64,000 nt of DNA from Ostrea edulis (lineage: Eukaryota): positions 40,300,001 through 40,364,000 of the forward strand of contig NC_079170.1 of assembly GCF_947568905.1 (NCBI RefSeq), read 5' to 3'. The position numbers and the translations under genes are program-made. How positions within the stretch are numbered: the stretch's first letter is position 1; every line of letters starts with the position of its first letter. Shown in pieces: positions 39,401-54,608 of this stretch. Below the pieces are notes generated by a model. That model was not told the DNA's origin. It made no database searches and saw only the letters and a list, made by a program, of their open reading frames with translations.

Positions 39401-40363
39401 CACAAAGCATTAGATCTAGGCTATCGTCTCGACCGCATTTACGAAGTTTGGCATTTTGAGAAAACCAGTGACCACTTATTTCGAGCGTATATCAACACCT
39501 TTTTGAAAATTAAACAAGAAGCTTCCGGATTCCCCGAGGATTGTCAAACAGCCCAACAGCAGCAACATTACATTGAGGAAATTCAGCAACGAGAAGGCAT
39601 TGCCATGAACCCGGGAGACATCCAGAAAAATCCTGTCCGAAGAACCATTGCCAAACTCTTTTTAAATTGCTTGTGGGGAAAATTTGCTCAACGATTACAA
39701 TTACCCAAATCCCTGTATCTCACGGAAGAAGAAGAATTACAACAGAAATTACAAGATGCCACTTTAGAAGTCAAAGGCATCGAACTCTTAGAAAATCGTG
39801 AACGCCCCGAATGTGATATGATGCTGATCAATTATCAGGAGAAAGAAGAATTTTTAGAAGACTGCCCCTTTGGAAACGTGGTGCTGGCGTGTTTTACAAC
39901 AGCTCATGCTCGTTTACATTTGTACGAGACGTTACAGCCTTTGGGAGAGCGTGTCTTATACTTTGACACGGATAGTATCATCTATCAGCACGACGAGACC
40001 CAGTTCGATCCGACCATTATCAACAGTTTAGGCGGGTGGACCGATGAATTGGGTGGAGATCGTATCATCAAGTACATGTCGGGCGGGCCCAAAAATTATG
40101 CATACGAGACCCAGGGGGGAAAATCTGTCTGCAAAGTCAAAGGATTGACACTCAATTATCGTGCCTCTAGAGTCGTGTCTCTCGATACGTTGGAAAAAAT
40201 GTTAAAAGGAGAAGAAGAAGAAGTCCATGTCCGCTATCCACACTTTATTCAACGAACCCGCCAACATGATGTGCGAACCATTCCTCTGGTGAAGAAATAC
40301 CGCATGGTGTATGATAAACGTCAACGTATTCATGACTATGACACGCTGCCTTACGGGTATTAA
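36401..40363 (+). CDS. polB: Protein-primed family B DNA polymerase (pPolB)
   Basis: Exonuclease motifs YDFEC, HNFKGYD and YCISD; polymerase motifs DVCSLYP, KLFLNCLWGK, YFDTDS and PKNY; internal VDGYD...EFYGCYWHGC nuclease-like insert. The ATG at 36401 follows a TATA at about 36355. Confidence 0.97.
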   Translation: MSDKLPTGLPRSYIEQRLRFLNDQLNRQRQRELQLRRENQRRLQYLQRGGGKKKLISDYYKIQLERGRQSRKFKVKENVYNVAFKPIPEKENTAFIRRLFRDMLKNVKQEMQCNPNDYLRLNIRHPSLDSAIWYEFTQSNQLNEDKILNKIESVQQSKKEFLITDGAVQMDFFHVKYPQGSGCTKKKHLHVDKEKFKNSKRAIVRIQNPEDSLCLSRAIVVARLHSQKSNDPAWETKWLRMRKGDFKTLDQKREAIALMEQAGCVMNQPCGPREWEQLQHALAPQYRLKIFQFKTNTTRLRLEPIYKGPGNGTCLNILLDNEHYDAIVSMPGVTENKYYCDYCDVGYSHIEEHRTVCPHRCSFCLADTPCIPDGTQTNCPHCKGFFRNAACYQTHLKPYSSNTTTTVCSLMGRCNQCQKWMSKHLLKRHACGGKTECRICHKVVTMPHHCFVQTKPKPKKEKEEEEELKIYIYYDFECSQENGIHIPNLCVAERVCQHCDSVDIDKPCSHCEGFGSQRRFLFQGPDTLKQFMEWLLQSETDEQGYVELKHDEVTIIAHNFKGYDGQFILNYLVHTACIKPTVILNGSKILSMQVLGLRFIDSYNFLPFALAKMPSAFGLTELKKGYFPHFFNTTENQQYVGPYPAAHFYNPDDMSTANRETFYTWYHQQEGKVFDFQKEFLAYCISDVDILRRCCAHFKSTLFDLVEVDPFQESITFASTANLAYRRGFMVENTIAIIPNMGYRPTRRYSAKACRWLAWLEHQHHCIRHARNGGEVTLGPYTVDGYDEESRIVYEFYGCYWHGCPTCFPNLLTDMHPHRVQHTYQDLYLDTLKRASALEDQDYTVVSIWEHEFDRQTQTNPDLQEFLQGVDIQDPLNPRDALYGGRTNATRLYCEEGDMRYVDVCSLYPYVLKYKPFPVQHPQVITSHFTDVRDYFGLIRCRVLPPRELYHPVLPYKTGGKLLFPLCRTCAEQRNLGPDERCQHTDSERSLTGTWVTTELHKALDLGYRLDRIYEVWHFEKTSDHLFRAYINTFLKIKQEASGFPEDCQTAQQQQHYIEEIQQREGIAMNPGDIQKNPVRRTIAKLFLNCLWGKFAQRLQLPKSLYLTEEEELQQKLQDATLEVKGIELLENRERPECDMMLINYQEKEEFLEDCPFGNVVLACFTTAHARLHLYETLQPLGERVLYFDTDSIIYQHDETQFDPTIINSLGGWTDELGGDRIIKYMSGGPKNYAYETQGGKSVCKVKGLTLNYRASRVVSLDTLEKMLKGEEEEVHVRYPHFIQRTRQHDVRTIPLVKKYRMVYDKRQRIHDYDTLPYGY

Positions 40364-40399
40364 AAAGGACATGCTAGAGAAAACCATCAGTCGGCAAAA

Positions 40400-40930
40400 A
40401 TGACGGACTACGAATCACTACATAACCCGGGTACACCACGTTATGCTCTACTGTCAGATCGAGTAGCGTCGTTTGAAAATGCTCCCGAACACTTGCAGAA
40501 GCTATTACCTACCATTGCAGAAGCGGGATACTTTTACAAAGGGTACGGGGATAACACGTGCTGTTTTTATTGCAACTTTGGACTTCAACATTGGGGAGCT
40601 GTCGACAATCCTTGGATACAACATGCTTATTGGTATCCTCACTGTCCTTACCTGAAGTGTAATAAGGGCAAACAATGGGTACGCCAAATGTTCGACGCCG
40701 TTAGCCGAATGCGAGACACGGGGAAGGATTGGGGAGACTTGTCTGTAGACAGTGTGGAGAATCCGGCTACGACGACGGAGAAATGTCATCTGTGTTTAGA
40801 AAGAGACTTGAGAATAGCTTTTTTACCTTGTGGTCATTTATGTACTTGTGCTATATGTGCTACGGGACTGAAACAATGTCCTATTTGTAGACATAGTGTT
40901 GAGCAAGCTGTACGTATTTTTACTTGTTAA
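40400..40930 (+). CDS. iap: Inhibitor of apoptosis protein (single BIR + C-terminal RING), intronless
   Basis: BIR CFYC-x16-H-x6-C preceded by R..SF and AEAGY; RING CHLC...LPCGHLCTCAIC...CPICR; AATAAA overlaps the stop. Confidence 0.93.
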   Translation: MTDYESLHNPGTPRYALLSDRVASFENAPEHLQKLLPTIAEAGYFYKGYGDNTCCFYCNFGLQHWGAVDNPWIQHAYWYPHCPYLKCNKGKQWVRQMFDAVSRMRDTGKDWGDLSVDSVENPATTTEKCHLCLERDLRIAFLPCGHLCTCAICATGLKQCPICRHSVEQAVRIFTC

Positions 40931-40970
40931 TAAATATGTATGATCCCATGAACTTGTGTCATTTATCAAG

Positions 40971-41609
40971 ATGTATACCTACGAGACACTTGAGCCTTTT
41001 CAGTTGAAACATGAATTTACCATGGTGGTGGCTGGACCCTCTAAATCGGGTAAAACGGAATTTGTCAAACAGCTGGTACAAAATACGCAGTGGATTGCAC
41101 CGCCTCCCGAAAAGATAGTATAGTGTTATCGCGAATGGCAGTCCGCGTACGAATCCTTACAGGACAAGGTCACTTTTATCCGCAATATACCTCAAGACGA
41201 TGAGCAGATAGTGGCGGATCTCAGTACGCGTCATCTACTCATTTTTGATGATATGATGGGAGGTAAAGCCATCGAATCGATTGTCGACTGGTTTACGCGC
41301 AAAGCGCATCATCGAAATACCAGTGTCATTTATATCACACAAAATCTGTTTGATCGAGCAGTACAACATCGTACCATCAGTCTGAATGCTCACTATCTTG
41401 TGCTGTTTAAAAATCCTCGAGATAAATCTCAGATTGGGGTGTTAAGTCGGCAATTACAAATGCCGCATTTACTTCCAGCCTATGAGGACGCCACCCGTGT
41501 ACCTCACGGGTATTTACTAGTGGACTTGAGTCCTCAGACGTCGGACGATTTAAGATTAAGAAGTCAACTCTTTACCAACTTGGCTGTGCACATGCCCCCG
41601 AGAGTATAA
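40971..41609 (+). pseudogene. A32/FtsK-like genome-packaging ATPase with an in-frame TAG at 41121-41123
   Basis: Manual translation from ATG 40971 gives Walker A GPSKSGKT, then KIV*CYREWQ, Walker B LLIFDD, ITQNLF and LFKNPRD. The ORF track shows only the part after the stop. Confidence 0.92.
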
Positions 41610-41658
41610 ATAATGTCACATCATGGGCAGGTGTATCATTCGAAAGACAGTCTTCACC

Positions 41659-42531
41659 ATGGGTAGACCTTCCGCGAAGAGTAAATTAGTCAAAACGTTA
41701 CGCCGTTTACAACGGGAACGGGATCCCGTTCAACGGAGCCATCTCATTGAATTAGGACGTAGAGCCTTACTCAACTGGTTTGCGATGGGCGCTCGAAATT
41801 TATTGCGAGGCGTCTTACCAGGCAATAAAATCACTCAGCGGTTCATTCAATCCCATCGCCAAGACTTGAGTGTCATTGCCGATAAGAAGTCCAATGAAGA
41901 AGAGCGTAAAAAAGCCATTTTGAAACGAGGAGGCGCCGGATTCTTAGGAGGGACCATTATCCGTCATTTATTCAAATGGGAAACAGGCCGTAAGCCCCGT
42001 GGGGGACAACCCAAGAAAACCAAGAAACCACGGGCTAAGAAAGCTAAAAAATCACCTCAGAGAATTCCTAAACTCATTATTCGCTTACCTAAGAAGACAC
42101 CTAAGAAGTCCCCTGAGAAATCCCCTAAGAAGACACCTCTCAGGATGAAGAATCCGTTTCCCAATTGGGCTCCAAAGAAAACCCCTCTCATTGTGAAGAT
42201 GCCGTTTCCCAAGGCCACACCCCCCAAGGCCACTAGAACGTTAGCCAATCTGAAAGCCGGATTAGCTCAAAAGAAAATGGAACGATCCATGCATGGGCCT
42301 ATAGGAAGTTCCAGAACCAGTGATACTGCTCTACCGAGTTTTGCTCATACCTTTGGAAGCATGAAATTTCAACCCTTAACCACCTCAACACCGGTTCAGG
42401 TGCAAAAGAAATATAAATGTAAATTTTGCCCTCTGGTCTTCAATGCGAGAGAGAACCGCAATCGTCACGAAGAGACCGTCCATCACAAGCGTTTTGATCC
42501 TAAACATCCGAGTGCCGTTGTCCTGGACTAG
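41659..42531 (+). CDS. Basic Polinton protein: N-terminal domain paralogous to the next ORF, [S/T]PKK-rich region, C-terminal C2H2 zinc finger
   Basis: NLLRGVLP matches NLLKGVIP of the next ORF; KKTPKKSPEKSPKKTP; CKFC-x12-H-x4-H; TATAAA at 41605 and caccATGg context at 41659. Confidence 0.75.
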   Translation: MGRPSAKSKLVKTLRRLQRERDPVQRSHLIELGRRALLNWFAMGARNLLRGVLPGNKITQRFIQSHRQDLSVIADKKSNEEERKKAILKRGGAGFLGGTIIRHLFKWETGRKPRGGQPKKTKKPRAKKAKKSPQRIPKLIIRLPKKTPKKSPEKSPKKTPLRMKNPFPNWAPKKTPLIVKMPFPKATPPKATRTLANLKAGLAQKKMERSMHGPIGSSRTSDTALPSFAHTFGSMKFQPLTTSTPVQVQKKYKCKFCPLVFNARENRNRHEETVHHKRFDPKHPSAVVLD

Positions 42532-42571
42532 GTATAAAAAGGAGGGGGAAGGTGCCCCACCCTTCATTACC

Positions 42572-42901
42572 ATGGCTCATACGAAGAAGTGTGAATGTCG
42601 ATTACGACCTCATTTACCGCTCTTGCAGACGTTAGCGGCTCCTCACTATTCCAGCAAATTAAAGACAGAGGTGTTGAAACATTGTTCCAATGACTGCATT
42701 TTAAAGATTTGTGAGATTGTGTACAATCTATTAAAAGGGGTGATTCCTCTCACCCCTACTCAGAAGCGACAACTGGGTCGAAAGAAACACATCTTAAGAC
42801 GCTTAGTCCGGACTCAACCCGTGAAAAAACGACGAGGTATACTCATCCACCAAAAAGGATTGGGTTCGTTTGTGTGTGGCAAGATTTGTAAGAAATCATG
42901 A
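42572..42901 (+). CDS. Conserved small basic Polinton protein (putative virion core)
   Basis: TATAAA at 42533, ATG at 42572; ICEIVYNLLKGVIPL...QKGLG resembles a recurring Polinton protein family (recognition from memory). Confidence 0.7.
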   Translation: MAHTKKCECRLRPHLPLLQTLAAPHYSSKLKTEVLKHCSNDCILKICEIVYNLLKGVIPLTPTQKRQLGRKKHILRRLVRTQPVKKRRGILIHQKGLGSFVCGKICKKS

Positions 42902-43665
42902 GTCGAAAAATGGTGTTGGTACCGGAAGCGATGCTCAACGAATTAAAAGGCAAATTACCTAAACCTCCCGAATTTACCTCGACTATTGGTTTACGCAGTG
43001 ATTTGGACGAGATTGAACATCGAGATGATTTAACCGAGAAAGAAAAAGTGGGGTTGTACGGGCATCAACTTCATCGCTATCGTCAATATTTACAACAAGC
43101 TCGACATCCCACCCCAGCGACTCTACCCTCCCCAACCACTGCAGCCAGTGCTGCCTCACCACCCTCAGCCGCCTCAGCATCCGATGACTTGGAGGAACAG
43201 ATTATCAAAAGCGTCAATAAACCGGGTCGAAAGAAAGCAGGTTTATTACTCGATCATCTCAAGAAATCCAAAGTGGTGACTTGGAATAAAGAAGGAGAAA
43301 TCAGCTATAGAGGACGCAGGGTTCCCGATTCCAATATTGTGGATTTAATGACCGAAGCCCAGCGACAAAGACCCTTAAGACATCGTGATCCCCCCGCGGG
43401 ATTAGAGGAATTTGCTCAAGCGTTAAAAGAGACTCATGCTCCCAAAGGATATGTGAACAATCGGGATGTTATAAAAGCCATGGACAAACCAGGGAAAATC
43501 AGTACGCCTAGACCTCTAGAGGAAGAGGAGAGCGGATTTCAAGAAATCTCTGGTTTTGACCAATCTTTCTATGAAACTCCCAGACGAATGATGACCCCTA
43601 AAAATATCTGGGAGGCCAGTAAAAAGACATCACGTGAAATTGGAAAATGGTTAAATCTACCATGA
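42898..43665 (+). CDS. Conserved uncharacterised Polinton protein (255 aa)
   Basis: Long ORF in the core block (KMVLVP, VTWNKEGEI, SNIVDL) with ATGA overlaps at both ends. Confidence 0.75.
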   Translation: MSRKMVLVPEAMLNELKGKLPKPPEFTSTIGLRSDLDEIEHRDDLTEKEKVGLYGHQLHRYRQYLQQARHPTPATLPSPTTAASAASPPSAASASDDLEEQIIKSVNKPGRKKAGLLLDHLKKSKVVTWNKEGEISYRGRRVPDSNIVDLMTEAQRQRPLRHRDPPAGLEEFAQALKETHAPKGYVNNRDVIKAMDKPGKISTPRPLEEEESGFQEISGFDQSFYETPRRMMTPKNIWEASKKTSREIGKWLNLP

Positions 43666-44732
43666 AAGCAGAACAGATCTTACAGCGACTGTATTACGAT
43701 CCCAAGACAGGGTATGGGGGAGTCCAGGCGTTGTATCGTCAAGTGCGTCAATTAGGACACAAGATTACCCTGTCTCAAATTCGAGAATGGGTGAAAGCTC
43801 AAGATACCTATACCTTGCATAAACCGATACGGAGGAAATTCAAGCGACGACAAACACGAGTGACGGATATGGATGAACAATGGCAATTAGATTTAGCCGA
43901 TGTCTCCAGCTTGAAACAAGACAATAATGGGTATACGTTTTTATTATGTGCCATTGACGTGCTGTCTAAATATGCCTGGGTCGTGCCTTTAAAACAGAAA
44001 ACGGGGAAAGAAATGATACGAGGCTTACGACGGATTTTTCGAGAGGGACGTCGCCCCGTGCGCATTCAGTCCGATCAAGGAAAAGAATTTACCAATAAAG
44101 AATTTCGTCAAGCCTTCAAATCCATTCATTTCTTTACGACCCGTAATGCCGAAACCAAAGCCAGTATTGTGGAACGTTTTCAACGCACGCTGAAAGCACG
44201 CATGTGGCGGTATTTTACACGTCATAAAACACGACGGTATGTCGATGTCTTGGGGGATCTGGTGTATGGTTACAATCATACCTATCATCGCAGTATCCGG
44301 CGAGCTCCTGCTCAAGTCAATGCCAAGAATGTCTTGACCGTATGGAAAACCTTGTATGGAAAACAGAGTGCCGATACCACGAGTCGCTTGCAAGTGGGGG
44401 ATCGTGTACGCATTAGTAAAGCCAAACGTACGTTTGAAAAAGGATATTTACCGAATTGGACCAAAGAACTGTTTACCATCTCTAGAAAAGTGCCAGGACG
44501 AAACGTCTATCGCATTCAAGATGATCACGGGGAAGAATTAGAAGGAACGTTTTACGAGAAGGAATTACAACAAGTGATTAAAGACGATGATGTCTACGAA
44601 GTGGAGGAAATCTTAGGGTATAAAAAGCGGCGTGTGGGAAAAAAAGTCATTTCAGAAGTCAAAGTGCGTTGGAAAGGATATCCTCCCAGTTTTGATTCAT
44701 GGATTCCGCAAGCGGATCTCATTCGGCCATGA
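43662..44732 (+). CDS. int: Retroviral-like DDE integrase with C-terminal chromodomain
   Basis: Catalytic D (WQLDLAD), D (QSDQGKEF) and E (VERFQRTLK); chromodomain YEVEEIL...VRWKGYPPSFDSWIP. Confidence 0.95.
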   Translation: MKAEQILQRLYYDPKTGYGGVQALYRQVRQLGHKITLSQIREWVKAQDTYTLHKPIRRKFKRRQTRVTDMDEQWQLDLADVSSLKQDNNGYTFLLCAIDVLSKYAWVVPLKQKTGKEMIRGLRRIFREGRRPVRIQSDQGKEFTNKEFRQAFKSIHFFTTRNAETKASIVERFQRTLKARMWRYFTRHKTRRYVDVLGDLVYGYNHTYHRSIRRAPAQVNAKNVLTVWKTLYGKQSADTTSRLQVGDRVRISKAKRTFEKGYLPNWTKELFTISRKVPGRNVYRIQDDHGEELEGTFYEKELQQVIKDDDVYEVEEILGYKKRRVGKKVISEVKVRWKGYPPSFDSWIPQADLIRP

Positions 44733-44986
44733 CCGCCCAGTGGACTTTCTTGGGTGAAAAAGTCCCTCGAGCAGAAATTGTGTATTTTGCACAATTATTC
44801 CTGTGTTTAACCATCATTATCACCTCCGTCGTCATGTTAGCCTTAGGCGATCCCAATCGCGATTTTTGGATGGTGACCTTAAGTTCTCTCGTAGGCTACG
44901 TCATGCCTAGTCCACAAATGACGTTAGCGAGCCCGAATATAAAACAGGATCGACCTTCTTCAGATTCACCAGTTCACCATGGCTAA
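44729..44986 (+). CDS. Small two-helix membrane protein
   Basis: Hydrophobic segments IVYFAQLFLCLTIIITSVVMLALG and FWMVTLSSLVGYVMP; ATG overlaps the integrase stop. Confidence 0.7.
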   Translation: MTAQWTFLGEKVPRAEIVYFAQLFLCLTIIITSVVMLALGDPNRDFWMVTLSSLVGYVMPSPQMTLASPNIKQDRPSSDSPVHHG

Positions 44987-45428
44987 CACACAGTACGCCT
45001 GGGAACAAGAGGGAAAGAAAACGGCATGGTTTGCGGATAAGCAGATGTGTTTGATGCATTGTAAACAACACAAAGTGTTAGATCAACCGGTGTACTTGTA
45101 CAAACGTATACTGATACCTCACGGATGGTCAGCCTTTATCATGAAGACTAAATATCAAGAGTTTCGCTGGAAAGTCAAAGCCTTCTGGGGATTGATGGGA
45201 CGACAAGACGAATCCGATTGGACCTTAAATGAGAGTCCTTGGTTTGACCATTCCGAGGACTGTCTCAGACATTTCAAAGACATGATCAATGAAGGTTATG
45301 ATGTAGCCGATTGCTGGGGAACCCGACACTATCTGGTGATGCGACGACGCTTAGTCCCGAGACGAACCCTGACGTTACCAGACTCGGATGCGTTGATGTG
45401 GGGTGGTGGCCGCGATCAAGAAGAATGA
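44979..45428 (+). CDS. Hypothetical Trp-rich protein (149 aa)
   Basis: ORF overlapping the previous stop, followed by AATAAA at 45462. Confidence 0.6.
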   Translation: MANTQYAWEQEGKKTAWFADKQMCLMHCKQHKVLDQPVYLYKRILIPHGWSAFIMKTKYQEFRWKVKAFWGLMGRQDESDWTLNESPWFDHSEDCLRHFKDMINEGYDVADCWGTRHYLVMRRRLVPRRTLTLPDSDALMWGGGRDQEE

Positions 45429-45540
45429 ATTGAATGTATTGTCATGTTGTATGTTGTTTCAAATAAAAATTGTGAAAAAACAAAACGGTGTTGTGTATAA
45501 ATAGAGAAGGAAACAGAGACAGGGTCTCATTTAAGACATC

Positions 45541-46536
45541 ATGGCTGGAGGAGAAGGGTTTTACATGACTCTGTTGAGTGATGGGTCGATGGAATCGTTT
45601 CCGACAAATACGACGGCTCAATTTAAAACGTTATTGCCACACACCATGGACTTAACGGATGGAGCATGGGAAGTCGGATTGACCGAAATGATGTACTCGG
45701 CCAACTTACAAAACGTATCGGATAGCGAGGCTTATGTGGACGTTCTCATTCCAGATCCGTATACGCAACATGTCCAAGATCCCAACACTTATAAATGGGA
45801 AAGATTTAAGACAGAGAATATGGGCAAAGTCACGATGGCCAGGTGTGAGGTGGTGGTCCCCTGGGCTCTGACGCCATGGTCCCATCTCTTTGCGGGAGGG
45901 GATAGTTTATTTCCCTTCGATATCATTCGCATTCACTTCCGACCCGGAACTTATACACAACCTTTGGCGTTAATCAATGAAATCAACGCAGCCTTAAGGA
46001 GAACCCTGTGGAAAGTATGGAGCGAGTTAGGGAATCCTAACGACGAGGGGAACAACCAGATCTTAGTGTATCACCCCGAGTACGATCGTGTCGAGTATCA
46101 GTTTAATGGGAAAGCACTGAGAACCACCCCCATGTGCATTCGTTTCCCTACGCCCTTAGCGTACAAGCTAGGTCTGGATAGTGACAAAATGATCCTGGGC
46201 GATGAAACCATGACGAAATGGATCAACGTGAATTACTTGGGGAACACGACCATGGATGTCTACGACAATCTGAAAGCCATGTATGTGTATTGTGACATTG
46301 TGGATCCTCAAGTGGTGGGCACCAACAAATTGAAATTATTGAGAGTCGTCCCCTGTACGGGTCAATACGACGATCGACAACAAGCCCGTTGGGAACCGAT
46401 TCGAGCCGAATATTTGAAACTGAGTAAGAAATATTTCGATACCATTGAGGTACACATCATGAATTCTTTAGGGCGTCCTATGGGGTTTTTAAATGGGCGC
46501 TCCTTAGTCAAACTTCATTTCCGCAAAGTGTATTGA
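45541..46536 (+). CDS. Minor capsid (penton, single jelly-roll) protein
   Basis: FYMTLLSD...WEVGLTE at the N-terminus, YVYCDIVDPQVVG and LVKLHFRK at the C-terminus are typical of Polinton pentons; TATAAA at 45496. Confidence 0.85.
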   Translation: MAGGEGFYMTLLSDGSMESFPTNTTAQFKTLLPHTMDLTDGAWEVGLTEMMYSANLQNVSDSEAYVDVLIPDPYTQHVQDPNTYKWERFKTENMGKVTMARCEVVVPWALTPWSHLFAGGDSLFPFDIIRIHFRPGTYTQPLALINEINAALRRTLWKVWSELGNPNDEGNNQILVYHPEYDRVEYQFNGKALRTTPMCIRFPTPLAYKLGLDSDKMILGDETMTKWINVNYLGNTTMDVYDNLKAMYVYCDIVDPQVVGTNKLKLLRVVPCTGQYDDRQQARWEPIRAEYLKLSKKYFDTIEVHIMNSLGRPMGFLNGRSLVKLHFRKVY

Positions 46537-46539
46537 AAG

Positions 46540-46683
46540 ATGAAGTACCATCGAGGAGTCAGACGCCAGAAAGGACACGGAATCTGGTTTCTCATTCCAT
46601 GGATTGCCAATGCCATTGTGAGTCAAGCGGGCCAAGGAAAGAAGAGAAAGAGACGGCGTAAAAAGTATAAAAAGCGGGTGTAA
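46540..46683 (+). CDS. 47-aa basic micro-protein resembling adenovirus pX/Mu precursor (not in ORF track)
   Basis: Manual translation: MKYHRGVRRQKGHGIWFLIPWIANAIVSQAGQGKKRKRRRKKYKKRV*. Confidence 0.65.
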   Translation: MKYHRGVRRQKGHGIWFLIPWIANAIVSQAGQGKKRKRRRKKYKKRV

Positions 46684-46710
46684 CCCCTAACGAAGTTCAT
46701 TTACATCAAG

Positions 46711-47403
46711 ATGCACTACCATAAAGGTTTAATACGGCAGCAGGGTCACGGGCTTGGAGCCCTGCTGGGAATAGCCAGCAAAGTGGCGGGTCCCCTGATC
46801 AGTGGATTATTAGGTGGAGCCCCCGCACAACAGCAACAACAACAACAGCGTCCTGTCTATCAAGAGAGATATTATGATTACGACCGCCCTTATCGCTCTT
46901 ATCAGAGGAGACGACGTAGAAGCCATCCAACAGAAGAATATGATCCAGAATCTGAAAAGCAGAAGGGAAAAGGATTTTTCACCGATTTACTCAAATCGGG
47001 GGCTAAAAGTGCCTTAAAGGCTGCTGCTAAAACAGGGATGGATGTGTTAGATAATAAACGATCACTCAAAGACGCTCTCAAGACACACGGTGCCCAAGCC
47101 CTGAAAGAGACAGCAGGGTATGCCCGTAGGCGAAGATCTCGAAAAGCCCCATCCAAACGAGGAAGAAAAGCACGCACAGGAATACTCAGGAAGCCTGGAA
47201 CCACGACCCTCAAAAGAAAACAGGTGGGAAAACAGGTGGGAATACAGGAAGGAAAAGGATTTGTTAAAAGAAAACAACGTATCTTAGCTCGGGGAGGGCC
47301 TCATAAGAGACCTAGGAAGCAACCTAGGAAGCGATCTAGGAAGGGAGGTAGGAAGCTAGTGAAAAGGGGTAAGCCAAAACGCTCTCTGGATATTTTCGAC
47401 TGA
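46711..47403 (+). CDS. Arg/Lys-rich putative virion core protein
   Basis: QQGHGLGALLG amphipathic start, highly basic C-half ending DIFD, located just upstream of MCP; TATAAA at 46666. Confidence 0.75.
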   Translation: MHYHKGLIRQQGHGLGALLGIASKVAGPLISGLLGGAPAQQQQQQQRPVYQERYYDYDRPYRSYQRRRRRSHPTEEYDPESEKQKGKGFFTDLLKSGAKSALKAAAKTGMDVLDNKRSLKDALKTHGAQALKETAGYARRRRSRKAPSKRGRKARTGILRKPGTTTLKRKQVGKQVGIQEGKGFVKRKQRILARGGPHKRPRKQPRKRSRKGGRKLVKRGKPKRSLDIFD

Positions 47404-47482
47404 GAACCCTATAAAAAGGGAGTGAGAAGGAGACCAGAACACATTTGATCCCAGTTCACGCTGAGTAACACATCGTTCCAAT

Positions 47483-48886
47483 ATGATGCACAGAGAATCT
47501 TGCGCTTGTGGCACCAGCAGTTTAGAACTGTTTAAAGTGCCCCCGACCAACGTCACTTTAGAAGATTCGAAATGGATGGAATATTACCCCATTTCCAGTA
47601 CCCTCAACTCGGATACGGCTCCGATTGAATTTGAAATCAAAGGACAAGGAGATGAATATCTGGATTTATCCCAAACTTATCTCCAGATGGTCTGTAAATT
47701 CACGAAAGCCAATGGAACGAATCTCACAGGAGGCCATTCGACCTCCACCCCCGTGAATAACATTCTCCATTCCTTGTTCAGTGAAATCGATGTCAGTCTC
47801 AATGGAAAAGTCATTACCCCGGGGACGGATACTTATCCCTACAAAGCGTATCTGGAGAAATTGCTGTCTTATGCACCCAAGACTCTGGAAACCCAGATGA
47901 GAGCCTGTAGCTTGTGGGAAAAAGATACGGCAGGACATATGGATGAGGTCAAATTAAAAGCTCTGGCTCAAACTCCTGTGGAATTTGCAGTAGTGAATAA
48001 CAAAGTCAACATCGCGGCCGTCATCCCGACTCCGGAGTATCCGGATGATTCCAAGAATGTAGGGTTGAGAAAACGTCACGAGAAGATTACAGACAGTAAG
48101 GAGATCGTGTTGATGGATCGATTACATCTGGATTTGTTTGAGCAAGAGAAATGTCTCCCTAATGGTTTGGATGTCCGTCTCAGATTCAATCGCGCTCGAC
48201 CCCAGTTCTACATGATGACCGATGCCGGGAGTAGTGGGAAAGTGGTCATTCAAAGTATGATCTTGTGGGTGAGGAAAGTCAAACCTGTGCCGAGTATCAT
48301 TAATCTCATCAATCAGCAACTGAGTACTCAAACGGCGAAATATCCATTGAGACGAGTGGAAGTGAAAACCTTCACCGTTCCTAGTGGCACCCAATCTAAA
48401 ATCACCGATCATCTGTTTCAAGGACAGATGCCTAAACTGATCGTGTTGGGTTTTGTGGACAATGCGGCTTTTAATGGGGATAATACCAGAAACCCCTTTC
48501 ATTTCCAAAATGAGAGAGTCAAGAAATTAGAAATCAGTATCAATGGAGAAATGATGGAAACCCGACCTTTGGAACCTAATTTCACCGACGATCAGTACCT
48601 GAGATCGTATTTGAGTCTGTACAAAGGCTTGGGAAAATTAGGCCAGGACTGGGCTCCGGACATTACCCTGGAAGAGTATAAAAACGGTTACACCCTCTGG
48701 TGTGTGGATTTCACGAAAGATCAAGAAGCCCAGACGGATAAATTTCATCTCATACAGACGGGGAACTTGAGAGTGGAAGTGCAATTTGCCGCCAACGTAG
48801 CCAGGACCTTAAACTGTGTGGTGTATGCCGTGTTCGACAATCTGCTAGAAATCAACAAACAACGAGAAGTCAGCATCGATTACTAA
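47483..48886 (+). CDS. Major capsid protein (double jelly-roll)
   Basis: 467 aa; N-terminal HRESCAC...[24 protein letters not shown] and LHLDLFEQ motifs typical of Polinton MCPs; TATAAA at 47410. Confidence 0.92.
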
Positions 48887-48893
48887 GAGAGAG

Positions 48894-49391
48894 ATGGATA
48901 CTCAGCAATTGAGAGATGTTTTACAACGAGATTTAGGACCGGCGTTTGCAGGTGTGTATCCTCGAGATGTCATACCTGAGCTGTTACCTCATCACAAAGC
49001 CATCGTGGTGAATACAGACCCTCACGATCGCCCTGGAGCGCATTGGGTCTGTTTGTATTTGAGTAGCCCTACCGTCGAATATTTTGATTCTTACGGATTA
49101 CCTCCCAGCCATAAAGACATCCAAGACTTTATTCAACGCCACGGAGAGACTTGGATTCATAACACCCATTGTTATCAAGATTTGAATATGGATGTCTGTG
49201 GACAATACTGTGTGTATTTTTTACATCAACGCCATCGACACAGAAGCACCGTACAAGAATGGTTACTTCCCTGGAAAGGCACGGCCTTACAACGCGATCG
49301 TTTTGTGGCTGATTGGTTTAAAGAGACCTTCCGAAAACCGAGAACCCATCAAGGACAAACTTGTCAATGTCAAAGACTGAATGTATTGTAA
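48894..49391 (+). CDS. Adenain-like cysteine maturation protease
   Basis: Catalytic motifs GAHW (His), YFDSYG (Asp) and Q-x5-CGQYC (Gln, Cys). Confidence 0.93.
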   Translation: MDTQQLRDVLQRDLGPAFAGVYPRDVIPELLPHHKAIVVNTDPHDRPGAHWVCLYLSSPTVEYFDSYGLPPSHKDIQDFIQRHGETWIHNTHCYQDLNMDVCGQYCVYFLHQRHRHRSTVQEWLLPWKGTALQRDRFVADWFKETFRKPRTHQGQTCQCQRLNVL

Positions 49392-49422
49392 ACTATGTTA
49401 TTGTTATTGTTCATAGTTGGAG

Positions 49423-49431
49423 TTTAATAAA
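49423..49431. terminator. Overlapping bidirectional poly(A) signals (AATAAA plus, ATTAAA minus)
   Basis: TTTAATAAA lies between the convergent protease and 98-aa genes. Confidence 0.5.
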
Positions 49432-49476
49432 ACGTTGGAAAAAAAATTTTTTTTTTCTTGTCATTGTAATCAACCA

Positions 49477-49519
49477 TGTCTTTTCAAAAAGAATGGGTAG
49501 CCCTGAAAAGGGCTGTTTT
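49477..49519 (-). terminator. Histone-type 3' stem-loop plus downstream element (SL1)
   Basis: Minus strand reads AAAAC-AGCCCT-TTTC-AGGGCT-ACCCA-TTCTTTTT-GAAAAGACA; stem-loop at 49499-49514. Confidence 0.8.
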
Positions 49520-49593
49520 CTTTCTCTCTCTGTTCTTGGTCTTTTCTCTTCTTCTTCTTCTCTCTTCTCTTCTCCTTCTCTTCTCTGTCCCCC

Positions 49594-49890
49594 TCACTGT
49601 CTGTTCTTCTTCTTCTTTCTTCTCTTCTTTTTCTGCTCCTCCGGGGGTTGCTCGTGGTCAAACACAAAAACAGGCAACCACCCGTGTTTAAAAAACAATC
49701 TCCCCGGAGGCCGCTGCACCACTTCTAACTCTGCGTCCCAGTTTTCCTCAGGCGGGGGCAGATCCTGGCTCATGGGCGGTGGGGGAAGAGCCTCCCGTGA
49801 GGCCGGCGGGGCAATCTCTTGGTCCCAATCCTCCTCGCATTTGTAACAATAATCATTCACTGTAGGGTCTGGTCCTACTCTACGGCTCAT
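49594..49890 (-). CDS. 98-aa Pro-rich protein with CxxC and a basic NLS-like tail
   Basis: ORF with its own promoter motif (49956-49981) and a 3' stem-loop; ends KKKRRKKKKNRQ. Confidence 0.65.
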   Translation of the reverse strand: MSRRVGPDPTVNDYCYKCEEDWDQEIAPPASREALPPPPMSQDLPPPEENWDAELEVVQRPPGRLFFKHGWLPVFVFDHEQPPEEQKKKRRKKKKNRQ

Positions 49891-50064
49891 GGTTCTGGTT
49901 CCTTAAAAAATCGGAATGCCCGATTTTTGACGTTGCGCTCGTTTAAAAAGGCGAGAGCGCGGACGTCCTTGAAAACATCCCCTACCTCAGATGGCTGACG
50001 TCATGTTGATGACTCATCAAAAAACACTGTATAAATAGGTCACTTGTTACCATTTTTCTCAATC
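49891..50064. promoter_or_regulatory. Divergent promoter with CRE, AP-1 and TATA boxes
   Basis: TGACGTCA 49996-50003, TGACTCA 50010-50016 and TATAAA 50030 (+); the 26-nt motif at 49956-49981 is shared with 51992-52017. Confidence 0.65.
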
Positions 50065-50460
50065 ATGTCGTTTGAACGGTACGTGCACGATGAGAAAGAT
50101 GTACTAGTGTGTGGGTATTGCCGAGGACCTTGGAGAACTTGTGGTTGTTTTCATTATAAAAAAGAAAACATCCTGGCCAAACATAAGTGGATAAAGTATA
50201 TGGCAGAGCTGAATTATTGTCCCTTTGTCTATAAATGTTGTGGTCACACTAGAGAACCCTGGCTACCGTGTAAGTGTCCGCAGCATTGTACCATCACCCC
50301 TGAAGAAGAAATAGCACATAAGGACTGTACCTGTGAGATCTGTCAGGAGTTTAGAGAGCGCTGGACTCAGAGAAAGTTTAAACCCCACCTGTTTCAACAT
50401 TGTCCTTACAGTCAAGAACCCCGGTTAACGTGTACCTGTGAGACCTGTCAACCAGCATGA
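50065..50460 (+). CDS. Cys-rich putative zinc-binding protein
   Basis: Repeated C..PW..CxC and CTCExC motifs; ATG 30 nt after TATAAA. Confidence 0.7.
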   Translation: MSFERYVHDEKDVLVCGYCRGPWRTCGCFHYKKENILAKHKWIKYMAELNYCPFVYKCCGHTREPWLPCKCPQHCTITPEEEIAHKDCTCEICQEFRERWTQRKFKPHLFQHCPYSQEPRLTCTCETCQPA

Positions 50461-50954
50461 CGGTGACGGATCTACGAGGAGATGTATTATCTCTACCTTG
50501 GGTGGATGCTATTGTACAACAATGTAACTGTTTAACGGTGAAACCTCATGGATTAAGTCAACGTATTGCCGACCGATTTCCTTGGGCTAATCTGTATGCG
50601 ACCCGACAACCTTTAGGACGGAGAAATTTAGCTATAGCAGCGGATCGAGGAATACCGGGTACTGTGTGTATTATGCCTCGTTCTACTCATCCTGATGTGA
50701 TCTGTTTGTTAGCGCAATGGGATTACGGGAGAGGCACTCAACGCTTACCCTTGTATGCCGATACCCCCGAACAACGTGAACTTTGGTTTCAACAATGTTT
50801 ACAGGAATTAGGCACTTTGTCTTACCAGACTTTAGCGTTTCCTTATCGTATTGGATGTGGATTAGCCGGAGGCAATTGGGCTCATTATAGACAATGGATT
50901 TGTGACTTTGCTTATCAGTATCATAAACATGTTTACATTGTCAAGAAAATGTAA
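50457..50954 (+). CDS. Macrodomain protein (TARG1/DarG/Poa1-like ADP-ribose processing)
   Basis: GD, QQCNC, GLS..IA.RFP and AFPYRIGCGLAGGNW motifs. Confidence 0.85.
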   Translation: MTVTDLRGDVLSLPWVDAIVQQCNCLTVKPHGLSQRIADRFPWANLYATRQPLGRRNLAIAADRGIPGTVCIMPRSTHPDVICLLAQWDYGRGTQRLPLYADTPEQRELWFQQCLQELGTLSYQTLAFPYRIGCGLAGGNWAHYRQWICDFAYQYHKHVYIVKKM

Positions 50955-51044
50955 CTTTATTATAGCTTTATTCTAGCTATTACTTGTGTTAATAAAACTT
51001 TTTTAAAACAAACTTGTGTGTTTCTTGATTTTTGCCATAAAAAG

Positions 51045-51086
51045 TGTCTTTTCAAAAAAGTTGGTGGCCCTGAAAAGGGCCGTTTG
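51045..51086 (-). terminator. Histone-type 3' stem-loop plus downstream element (SL2)
   Basis: Minus strand reads CCAAAC-GGCCCT-TTTC-AGGGCC-ACCAA-CTTTTTT-GAAAAGACA; stem-loop at 51066-51081, 24 nt after the stop of 51105-51890. Confidence 0.88.
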
Positions 51087-51104
51087 GTCCTAAGGACCGA
51101 CTTT

Positions 51105-51890
51105 TCATTCCCTGCTTCCGGTAAACCGGCATAACGGGCACCGTCCCCGGGTGTGTCGCCGCTCCTGTAACTCTTCCACGCACGAGCAGCAAGCTGGGCG
51201 CTGCCCACATCCCCTACACGTAATTCCAGAGTGTACCCTGTCTTGCCAGCAGACAGGACACTTAAACCAGATAGGAACCGCCCTATCTGCCCAGCCAGGG
51301 ACAGTCATAGGGTGGTTCCTCGGGGGATGAGTTGCCACCGGTGCGTGGGTTGGTCTCGGTGGCGGAGTCCTCCCTGCAAACCGGATGGTAGGTGGTGGGG
51401 GTCTTGCAGGGGCTGCTGGTCTCGGTGGTGATGCTGTGTCTGCCACCAACAGCGACGGACTCTGACGTGGGCTGGGAGGTGGTGCGGGGGACGGTGACCT
51501 CGGTGAATAGTCCACCGGTGACGCTGGTGAGTCGCTCATCGGCACCGGGCTGTATTCCACTGGTGCCGATGGGATCGCTGGTGGTGGTGTTGTAGGCGTC
51601 GCCGGGGAGTAAGGTGGTGGTGGTGAGGGTGGCTGTGGGGCCCGTCGGCGCGGTCTCGTACCCGTGGAGATTCGAGCGGTGCGGCGGCGTCCACTCCCTT
51701 CATACTCTGCCCGCACCCGACAGATGATCTCACGGACCCCACTCTGGTCGAAAGGGGAGAAGGTGCTCAGGTCGTTCTCAGAACGCACGACCCAATTCTC
51801 CCCTACCCGTTCCTCAGCCACCACTACCAGCCGGTACCGAAAGCCAGGCAAGGTCTGGAAATTGTAGAGCGGGTCTCTTCTTGCAGCCAT
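51105..51890 (-). CDS. Pro/Ser-rich protein with C-terminal all-Cys RING finger (putative E3 ligase)
   Basis: CPVC-x10-CRGC-x5-CCSC-x13-CPLC; PPPY and three YSP motifs including YSPRSPS. Confidence 0.8.
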   Translation of the reverse strand: MAARRDPLYNFQTLPGFRYRLVVVAEERVGENWVVRSENDLSTFSPFDQSGVREIICRVRAEYEGSGRRRTARISTGTRPRRRAPQPPSPPPPYSPATPTTPPPAIPSAPVEYSPVPMSDSPASPVDYSPRSPSPAPPPSPRQSPSLLVADTASPPRPAAPARPPPPTIRFAGRTPPPRPTHAPVATHPPRNHPMTVPGWADRAVPIWFKCPVCWQDRVHSGITCRGCGQRPACCSCVEELQERRHTRGRCPLCRFTGSRE

Positions 51891-51978
51891 TCTTCTTCTT
51901 CTTTCTTCTTAAATAATCTTCAAAAATCTTCTACAACTGTGCTGGATCACCAGTGAAGCGAACTGGCGAGTGCGCCGG

Positions 51979-52061
51979 TATATATCAGGAAAGCGCGGAC
52001 CTCCTCGAAAACATCCCTCGCTTCGGAGACGAAGCCAAGATGGTGGCCGTCAAAATGGCGG
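51979..52061 (-). promoter_or_regulatory. Promoter of RING gene: TATATA, shared 26-nt motif, YY1-like CAAAATGGCGG
   Basis: 51992-52017 is 24/26 identical to 49956-49981, with a TATA-like box 6-7 nt downstream in both. Confidence 0.6.
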
Positions 52062-52453
52062 ATTTGTGCTTTCGAGTAGAGAGTTTTTTCTCATTTGTCT
52101 TTTTCTAGACATTCGATATCTGTGCAAGGTAGATTTAATCTGATAGATTCTGAGACGGCGAATGCGTTAAACTTATTTTTATTTTGCTACGTCGCATAGT
52201 TTTCAAAGAAACAGCGGTTAAAGAGGTCGAGTCGAGGTTCAATGTTTCTTCACCCCCTCTTTAAAAATTTATTTCTCGACCATGTACATCCCTAAAAACA
52301 TCTCATAAGGTCTATTCGATAGAAAACACCTTATTTGATTCGATTTTCACTCTACCTTTAGGATTTTCTGGATTCCTCAACAAATAAACCCTTCTCTGAG
52401 AGACTCAACCAAACACAGCTTTCGTGTAAACAATTTTATTCATGTCACATATT

Positions 52454-52672
52454 TCAAATACATAACTCCCACACACAACACCAATGCACATGTCTTTTTA
52501 AAATAGGGTCCAACATTTTTTCCATTTCTCGAATCCTGCGTTGAAATCGATAGCGATCAGCGGCTACAGTCATCCAGATACTTGTCCGGTCTTCTTCGGG
52601 TAACAGATACACTTCATTATGATCCAGATTAAAAGTCACACGTTTAACTTGACGTACATCTCTCGAAGACAT
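52454..52672 (-). CDS. PPP1R15 (GADD34/ICP34.5/DP71L)-like PP1 adaptor, 72 aa
   Basis: RVxF motif KRVTF followed by R..IW...AADRYRFQRRI...MLDPIL, matching the eIF2alpha-phosphatase recruiting domain. Confidence 0.88.
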   Translation of the reverse strand: MSSRDVRQVKRVTFNLDHNEVYLLPEEDRTSIWMTVAADRYRFQRRIREMEKMLDPILKRHVHWCCVWELCI

Positions 52673-52941
52673 CGTAGTCTGATTTTCTCGATTTCTGCTC
52701 TGTCTGTGGGTCGAATTCGTTTCAATTCCTGGCCCATTAAATGAATCAGTACTAAGGCTTGCGGGGTGATCCGGTTCTCGATCAAATACTGACAGAGACA
52801 TGGATAGTTCTTTAAGCTGATGGGAAATAATTCTTCTCGCATATAGTGTAACACAAATTCAATCTGCTCAGAATGAATGTCTGTGAGATAATCCAATACA
52901 TAAACTATCGCTTTCTCTGTGATGTGGTCACTGCTGGCCAT
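52636..52941 (-). CDS. Alpha-helical protein, paralog A of the Bcl-2-like triplet
   Basis: Aligns with the two upstream ORFs (LVLIHLMGQELKRIRP..AEIEKI..CLREMY). Confidence 0.6.
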   Translation of the reverse strand: MASSDHITEKAIVYVLDYLTDIHSEQIEFVLHYMREELFPISLKNYPCLCQYLIENRITPQALVLIHLMGQELKRIRPTDRAEIEKIRLRCLREMYVKLNV

Positions 52942-53275
52942 CCTCCGGGAATAAATGAAATGAATTAAGTTCTTCACACTTTATGTATACTTCTCGAAGC
53001 CAGTCCTTGGTGATACTTTCAATCTCGGCGGTTTTTTCAGGCATGCGTTTCTTGAATTCCTCCCCCAGGACATAAATTAACATCAATCCCGCATCGTTAT
53101 AGAGATTGATGTATATCCGGTTCCGTAGATCTGTATATTCGTCCAGAGTCATTGGAAACACTCCCGCTATCAGAAATTTTTTAGCGAATTGAAACACCGT
53201 ATCGTCTTGCATTTTCTCGACCCATTCTAATGCATGGTTATGCGCTTTTTCTGCGATGTTGTCACTTTCAGCCAT
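52928..53275 (-). CDS. Alpha-helical protein, paralog B of the Bcl-2-like triplet
   Basis: LMLIYVLGEEFKKRMP..AEIESI..WLREVY; own TATAAAA at about 53311-53317. Confidence 0.6.
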   Translation of the reverse strand: MAESDNIAEKAHNHALEWVEKMQDDTVFQFAKKFLIAGVFPMTLDEYTDLRNRIYINLYNDAGLMLIYVLGEEFKKRMPEKTAEIESITKDWLREVYIKCEELNSFHLFPEDGQQ

Positions 53276-53311
53276 GGTTTGTAAATGAAAAAATTCCAAA
53301 ACGTTCTTGTT

Positions 53312-53644
53312 TTATAACAGGGCCGCCATTCCTTTCATACGAATCAGTTCCACGAATCCTTTTTGTAGACAATCGCGTAAGATCCGATCAATGTCACTCA
53401 TCTGGTCTGGAAGATTCTGTTTCAATTCCTCAGCATACAAATAAATCATGAGTAAACGTCCCGTATTGGTATTCTCCGCTAATGAATCAGCAATCCGTTG
53501 AAAACTATGTACATTTCTGACCTCCGGTGACATCTGTTGTACAAATTGACGAGCATTTTGAATGTGAGGGTCATGTAAGGCCACGTTCATACATTGTAGT
53601 ACATAACTATATCCATTTATTCTCGTAGTACCACTGCCGCCCAT
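53312..53644 (-). CDS. Putative viral Bcl-2-like protein, paralog C
   Basis: BH1-like FQRIADSLAENTNTGRLLMIYLY (cf. NWGR); MGGSGT possible myristoylation; TATAAATA at 53675-53682. Confidence 0.6.
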   Translation of the reverse strand: MGGSGTTRINGYSYVLQCMNVALHDPHIQNARQFVQQMSPEVRNVHSFQRIADSLAENTNTGRLLMIYLYAEELKQNLPDQMSDIDRILRDCLQKGFVELIRMKGMAALL

Positions 53645-53698
53645 AGTAAATAACGAACGTTCAGAAAACACCTGTATTTATAGGTAAAGGTTATGCAT

Positions 53699-53748
53699 CA
53701 CGTGATCAAACACCTGCACCACGTGATCAAACACCTGTACGTCAGCTG
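53699..53748. promoter_or_regulatory. E-box-rich direct repeat in divergent promoter
   Basis: CACGTGATCAAACACCTG at 53699-53716 and 53720-53737; CAGCTG at 53743. Confidence 0.6.
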
Positions 53749-53783
53749 GTTTTTCTACAGTCATTCTTGTCTGACCTTCAGTC

Positions 53784-54290
53784 ATGGATACACGGAGAAT
53801 TTTAAGAGCGAGACACCGCCGCCAGGGAATACAACCAGTGAAGAATTTAACCATAGTAGAAGATTATGTAGACGAGATGGAGATCTGGGACAATTTAGTA
53901 CAGAGATGTCGCCATCGATTACGCTGGGGCCGATCTAAAAATTGGTGTTTTGACTATGTATTGCGGTCACATGAAACAGTGGAGGATATTTACCTGCGTT
54001 TAAGTGACATGTACCTGAAAAATTCCCCCCTCATACAGTACATGATTTACCAGTTTTACACGTTATTGAACGGCACTCAAAAAGTATCGGGATTTATTCG
54101 ACTGGAGAAACCACGTTACCGGAGAAGTGTATGGGTATTGTTTTGGGATGCACACTGGATGTGGGAAACCGTCGAAGAGATACGTTTCCCCGGGAGAAGA
54201 GCTCGACAATTAGTACAACACATTATATCCGAAGATCATGACTTACACGTGTATATAGAAGAACCTGCGTATGAAGCCGGCCATTTTTAA
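53784..54290 (+). CDS. Derived CRESS-virus Rep (HUH) origin-binding-like domain with catalytic motifs lost
   Basis: KNWCF (motif I) and YMIYQ-x6-G-x5-GFIRLEK-x13-AHW have the same spacing as nanovirus-type Rep YLVYQ-x6-G-x5-GYIEMKK-x13-AHF; HxQ is replaced by KVS and there is no YxxK. Confidence 0.65.
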   Translation: MDTRRILRARHRRQGIQPVKNLTIVEDYVDEMEIWDNLVQRCRHRLRWGRSKNWCFDYVLRSHETVEDIYLRLSDMYLKNSPLIQYMIYQFYTLLNGTQKVSGFIRLEKPRYRRSVWVLFWDAHWMWETVEEIRFPGRRARQLVQHIISEDHDLHVYIEEPAYEAGHF

Positions 54291-54309
54291 AAATAAAAAC
54301 TTCATGCAC

Positions 54310-54325
54310 AGCCCTTTTTAGGGCT
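54310..54325 (+). terminator. Histone-type 3' stem-loop (SL3)
   Basis: AGCCCT-TTTT-AGGGCT followed by AC, starting 20 nt after the stop; AATAAA at 54292; no downstream GAAAAGA. Confidence 0.6.
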
Positions 54326-54376
54326 ACTTTAAACACCAATATAAGTTCCATTCCACTAAAGTCAATGTGTACCAAT

Positions 54377-54450
54377 GTGCACTAGCACGCGCTGGTCGCG
54401 AGAAACCGGCTTTTCAAGTTCAATTAGTGCACTAGCACGCGCTGGTCGCG
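54377..54450. repeat. 24-bp direct repeat x2 (period 50)
   Basis: GTGCACTAGCACGCGCTGGTCGCG at 54377-54400 and 54427-54450, each followed by a GAAACCGG(C/T)TTTTC-like motif. Confidence 0.9.
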
Positions 54451-54608
54451 CGATGTTCTAGCTGAAACCGGTTTTTCCAGAAAAAGATGATGCAACCACG
54501 TGCTCCCCACGTGCCCCTCACGAGACAATAGTCTAGACATTTTGCTGGCTATAAAAGCGGAGCCCCAGTGTCAGTCCTCAATCGATCTTCAATCACCTTC
54601 CAGAAGAC

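Follow-up and report, generated by a model that had tools for sequence, protein, structure and literature searches.

Poxviruses turn the Bcl-2 scaffold to further host partners, as in vaccinia A46, A52, B14 and K7, whose Bcl-2 folds serve innate-immune or other host targets, and a C-terminal transmembrane anchor is common, though not universal, in the Bcl-2 family. Homologues of Bcl2 and of inhibitors of apoptosis (IAP) also occur in adintoviruses (Starrett et al., 2021; PMC8502044), and the accessible portion of that text describes no tandem array, copy-number variation or DP71L-like neighbour; likewise, the accessible portion of a review (PMC11209288) does not mention polintons. The present study concerns a window of 64,000 nucleotides from Ostrea edulis (contig NC_079170.1, positions 40,300,001 to 40,364,000), within which a Maverick/Polinton element of the adintovirus type (35955..55948, no strand assigned) encloses an array of Bcl-2-like genes. 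Three of these, designated A, B and C, are paralogous and lie within the accessory region of this multi-copy element, and a fourth, D, is found in other copies. They are probably miniature, anchor-less Bcl-2-fold proteins that would help keep the host cell alive. Although Bcl2 genes are thus already known in adintoviruses from the material available, a literature search by title and the start of the abstract, covering few subscription papers, found neither a description of a tandem, variable Bcl-2-like array in Polintons nor a report of a GADD34/DP71L-like gene in them.

All three paralogs lie on the minus strand: A (52636..52941, 101 aa), B (52928..53275, 115 aa) and C (53312..53644, 110 aa). 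These are the open reading frames (ORFs) named in the original prediction, and the motifs it quoted are present, with C containing FQRIADSLAENTNTGR and the N-terminus MGGSGT. Local alignment gave scores of 142 for A–B (z 26), 72 for A–C (z 10.7) and 76 for B–C (z 11.6), and in no case did any of 2000 shuffles reach the observed score. In 18 control comparisons with the element's other ORFs, z did not exceed 2.8. Amino acid identity in the three pairs was 33%, 24% and 18%, respectively. The mutual similarity on which the prediction depended is therefore real, but the likeness of A and B spans their whole length rather than the C-terminal half alone.

A Bcl-2-like fold is predicted for B and C, with model pLDDT values of 83–84 (83.7 for C), and is assigned to A from its homology to B only; the fold proposed earlier for all three genes thereby gains structural backing for two of them. 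In the Foldseek comparison of C with the PDB, 41 of the 41 listed rows belonged to the Bcl-2 family (best E 0.2), and in BFVD the Bcl2 of Branchiostoma adintovirus (UniProt A0A5H3CWZ2) appeared at rank 10 (TMq 0.50, E 2.1). When B was compared with 48,161 chains, the Bcl-2 fold occupied 16 of the top 17 places, with alignments over 95–110 of its 115 residues. Anti-apoptotic Bcl-2 proteins of viruses headed the structural matches (ORFV125, vaccinia F1L, canarypox CNP058, A179L of African swine fever virus (ASFV), GIV66, KsBcl-2 and M11L); they combine low sequence identity with a conserved fold, as the Maverick genes are predicted to do. The adintovirus protein comes from the same kind of element and weakly resembles C in structure; it has 197 aa and is 11% identical, whereas the Ostrea genes encode 101–117 aa and lack an anchor.

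Could the resemblance be a convergence of small helical folds, the proteins being an unrelated five-helix bundle? Several points weigh against the Bcl-2 assignment in this way: the fold scores of B and C are all modest, sequence searches for Bcl-2 likeness mostly come up empty, and the predicted bundle has only five helices and ends with a long one. Against convergence, B and C share so few residues and were examined with two different aligners, yet the Bcl-2 family ranked first for both, and their matches span most of the chain, while most unrelated rows in the comparison of B cover only 60–80 residues. In addition, a family profile aligned to four host Bcl-2 proteins places NTGR of C in register with NWGR (68 columns, E 0.006). 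Convergence is accordingly judged distinctly improbable. Two host Bcl-2/Bcl-xL-like exons were also observed 2.6 kb apart elsewhere in the genome (L056 and L057, G000:C10:33.68 Mb).

By formal standards, the family belongs to Bcl-2 in part. Paralog C scored 17.1 bits against Pfam PF00452 (curated cut-off 31.4; E 0.008), and the other 21 family members gave no match to this profile. The NWGR-type BH1 motif is carried by C alone, a feature shared with KsBcl-2; the corresponding position is degenerate in A (TPQA), B (NDAG) and D (NRESG). No C-terminal anchor was detected in 31 of 31 sequences, the best 19-residue hydropathy near the C-terminus being at most 0.95, unlike F1L and many cellular Bcl-2 proteins, which have a C-terminal transmembrane anchor; a further difference from the anti-apoptotic viral proteins is that BH3 binding by the Maverick family is only predicted, for C. 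With these qualifications, the array likely works as viral Bcl-2 proteins do, C most of all.

The function of C was approached through its predicted complex with a host Bax-like BH3 stretch (L060), which scored 0.67 against 0.08 for the best control, the runs agreeing in at least 85% of contacts and the partner having a pLDDT of at least 69. Of 78 solved pairs, 51 reached the mark for such scores, as did 2 of 108 mismatched ones; peptides lay outside this calibration. In the model, the closest contacts are made by NTGR, Gly62 facing Gly and Arg63 facing Asp of the BH3, the canonical geometry. C is thus predicted to hold the host helix through NTGR, although the score may reflect likeness to solved complexes. 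It is also conceivable, if unlikely, that all paralogs, C included, have a Bcl-2 fold without any role in apoptosis and bind innate-immune or other host proteins in the manner of the vaccinia proteins; the canonical contacts of the model speak against it, as does the retention of NxGR by C-type relatives that are otherwise diverged (NTGR, NPGR, NIGR or NVGR). Between subfamilies, dN/dS of C is 0.11–0.14 (one pair saturated); a value of 2.2 for one close C' pair comes from very few changes. All 7 C-type rows keep Gly2, which the outside homologue P0005 lacks.

The enclosing island is a Maverick/Polinton because it combines terminal inverted repeats of 349 nt (35955–36303 and 55600–55948, 99% alike), AGTAGT/ACTACT ends of the (AG)n/(AGT)n type, TGCATT on both flanks as a 6-bp target duplication, a protein-primed PolB (Pfam DNA_pol_B_2, E 2e-57) and a retroviral-type integrase with rve and chromo domains (Pfam rve, E 1.6e-11). 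GC content rises from about 35% to about 45% between 36 and 56 kb, and this GC island is delimited by the inverted repeats. The original prediction had overlooked this setting, as well as the fourth gene of most young copies and the DP71L-like gene that overlaps A. A protease with a weak adenain-like match (Pfam Peptidase_C5, E 5e-4) and zinc-knuckle proteins are also encoded, together with an IAP gene with BIR and RING domains (40400..40930, plus strand; E 7e-16 and 1.8e-12 in Pfam). Capsid and packaging-ATPase genes are presumed from position and motifs, having no Pfam match; the packaging-ATPase-like frame (40944–41609, plus strand) has an in-frame stop at 41121–41123 in the window copy.

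A further gene, on the minus strand at 52454..52801, overlaps paralog A, its N-terminal part being overprinted on A in the -1 frame. Its product resembles PP1-targeting proteins of the DP71L/GADD34/CReP type: it matches Pfam PP1c_bdg (E 1.7e-6, 28.3 bits against a cut-off of 26.1), ASFV DP71L (E 1.9e-5) and CReP (E 2.4e-5), and carries the RVxF motif and the conserved helix that follows it. The likeness to ASFV DP71L, ICP34.5 of herpes simplex virus, GADD34 and CReP thus extends over RVxF and the following motifs in the DP71L and CReP matches; unlike these relatives, however, the Maverick ORF is overprinted on a Bcl-2-like paralog and, in the outside protein P0010, a triplet-family domain is fused in frame to the PP1 module (25 of 51 residues identical). 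Judged from the reading frames, the overlap looks selected: 6 of 7 A-type genes keep the -1 frame free of stops along their 3' two-thirds, whereas all 14 of the B, C and D genes have it closed.

Array size varies across the 895 Mb searched, in which all match counts are lower bounds. At least 150 loci matched B, all 150 scored places being hits, and at least 145 matched C (145 of 150). Between C and B, 5 of the first 15 loci have paralog D, which has 117 aa and shares about 41% of its residues with B. The young C copies number 86, of which 84 are full-length with at least 94% identity and 2 are partial; D was found within 500 bp of 68 of them and not of the other 18. Most young copies therefore have four genes, unlike the three in the window, and in some of them the A allele is only 52% identical to that of the window. 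The order C-B-A-PP1 without D occurs in at least 11 older loci with a readable array (L036–L044, L051 and L052), while in a distant Maverick family, whose integrase is 39% identical (G000:C3:94.31 Mb), a single paralog stands beside a CARD+PC4 gene (L062:141–1097 and L061:9562–9867). Mavericks of the same genome thus carry arrays that differ in size (one, three or four genes), which supports, well beyond the window, the gene-accordion expansion proposed from it. At one locus (L055, G000:C8:4758000–4767000), two arrays of different subfamilies were observed within 9 kb on opposite strands, separated by an ORF labelled helicase-like by eye. Beyond this genome, a profile search of 1.84 billion representatives returned 35 matches, some of the C type and others of the A/B type; two of these homologues (P0018 and P0035) have about 200 aa and apparently two family domains per chain.

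The proposal that the genes had been duplicated together with their promoters, on the strength of similar A and B leaders behind TATA-like boxes, fared less well. In the window, the 70-nt leaders of A and B align with a score of 19, which was reached by 291 of 2000 doublet shuffles and is at chance level; the leader of A is in fact the coding tail of B, which overlaps the start of A by 14 nt. A TATA-like box across the stop codon of C, followed by an initiator-like TCATTT, does precede B (53283..53316, minus strand), and a TATA-like box with an initiator-like TTATTT precedes C (53648..53682, minus strand), but A fails the strict pattern. This pattern, defined after the leaders had been inspected and marking putative promoters from sequence alone, is found ahead of 6 of the element's 21 ORFs, B and C included, and ahead of D and B in L011, compared with 0.5–0.7% of random 80-mers; the putative sites fall inside the preceding gene or at its end. 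What remains of the proposal is a shared junction: the leader of A matches, at a level reached by 1 of 2000 shuffles, that of B in copies with four genes, so that on sequence comparison the A/B leader junction is duplicated in those copies. The stretch 53283..53316 also precedes D there, and the B and D leaders align with a score of 109 (0 of 2000 shuffles). Because the region upstream of B in the window joins the upstream stretch of D, as far as TCATTT, to a start like that of older-subfamily B genes, it suggests an exchange at a shared leader motif. Recombination at such short shared leaders, between subfamilies of the element, is the likely means by which the array gains and loses genes.

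Selection on the remaining paralogs bears on whether C alone is functional, with A, B and D as drifting duplicates carried by the element. Between subfamilies, dN/dS of B is 0.63–0.92; several B pairs near 1, together with the young copies that lack D, are what drift would leave. A-type genes, however, have values of 0.19–0.48 (0.19–0.38 between subfamilies), although the overlapping frame confounds these estimates; B and D retain 43% of residues despite saturated synonymous sites; and homologues of the B/A type occur in other Maverick families and in the outside data. Pure drift is consequently rated very improbable.

Several neighbouring genes complete the picture of the accessory region. 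The array is flanked by a proline-rich protein (51105–51890, minus strand), with a C-terminal RING-like cysteine cluster judged by eye, and on the other side by a double zinc-knuckle protein (54609–55526, plus strand). Divergent from C, a 168-aa ORF (53784–54290, plus strand) is kept across subfamilies; it matches Pfam Viral_Rep weakly (E 0.015), and a PDB search gave no match. A 165-aa ORF (50457–50954, plus strand) has weak matches to BT1257 (E 0.003) and to a 'Macrodomain protein' structure (E 0.2), and is a possible ADP-ribose-binding counter-defence gene.

If the miniature Bcl-2 proteins act as proposed, they would favour host cell survival while the element replicates or transposes. C may serve as a BH3 sponge that blocks Bax/Bak-type killing, possibly reaching membranes by N-myristoylation in place of a C-terminal anchor. 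Having lost NxGR, A, B and D would probably direct the same scaffold to other host partners, as do the poxvirus Bcl-2-fold proteins (N1, A46, A52, B14 and K7), a family of independent origin; the Maverick genes, in contrast, belong to an integrating element, 20 kb long, from an invertebrate. The DP71L-like protein would recruit PP1 and so reverse the eIF2-alpha shut-off, and with caspases blocked by the IAP, the three would together form a layered kit against cell death and translational shut-off. A bolder interpretation, advanced only tentatively, is a poxvirus-style accordion in Mavericks, with a BH3-binding C, retooled A, B and D genes swapped between co-resident subfamilies, and the A branch tied to the DP71L-like PP1 adaptor by overprinting and fusion.

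Mavericks are widespread in animal genomes, and their handling of host defences has been little studied. The family described here is missed by ordinary annotation, and its roughly 100 natural copies in one genome, in arrays of one, three or four genes, provide a ready data set on duplication and target change of viral Bcl-2 folds. The adjoining IAP and DP71L-like genes suggest that the element, like large DNA viruses, actively counters both cell death and the shut-off of translation. Should the accordion interpretation hold, a single evolving cassette in an integrating invertebrate virus of 20 kb would link the control of apoptosis with that of the eIF2-alpha stress response.
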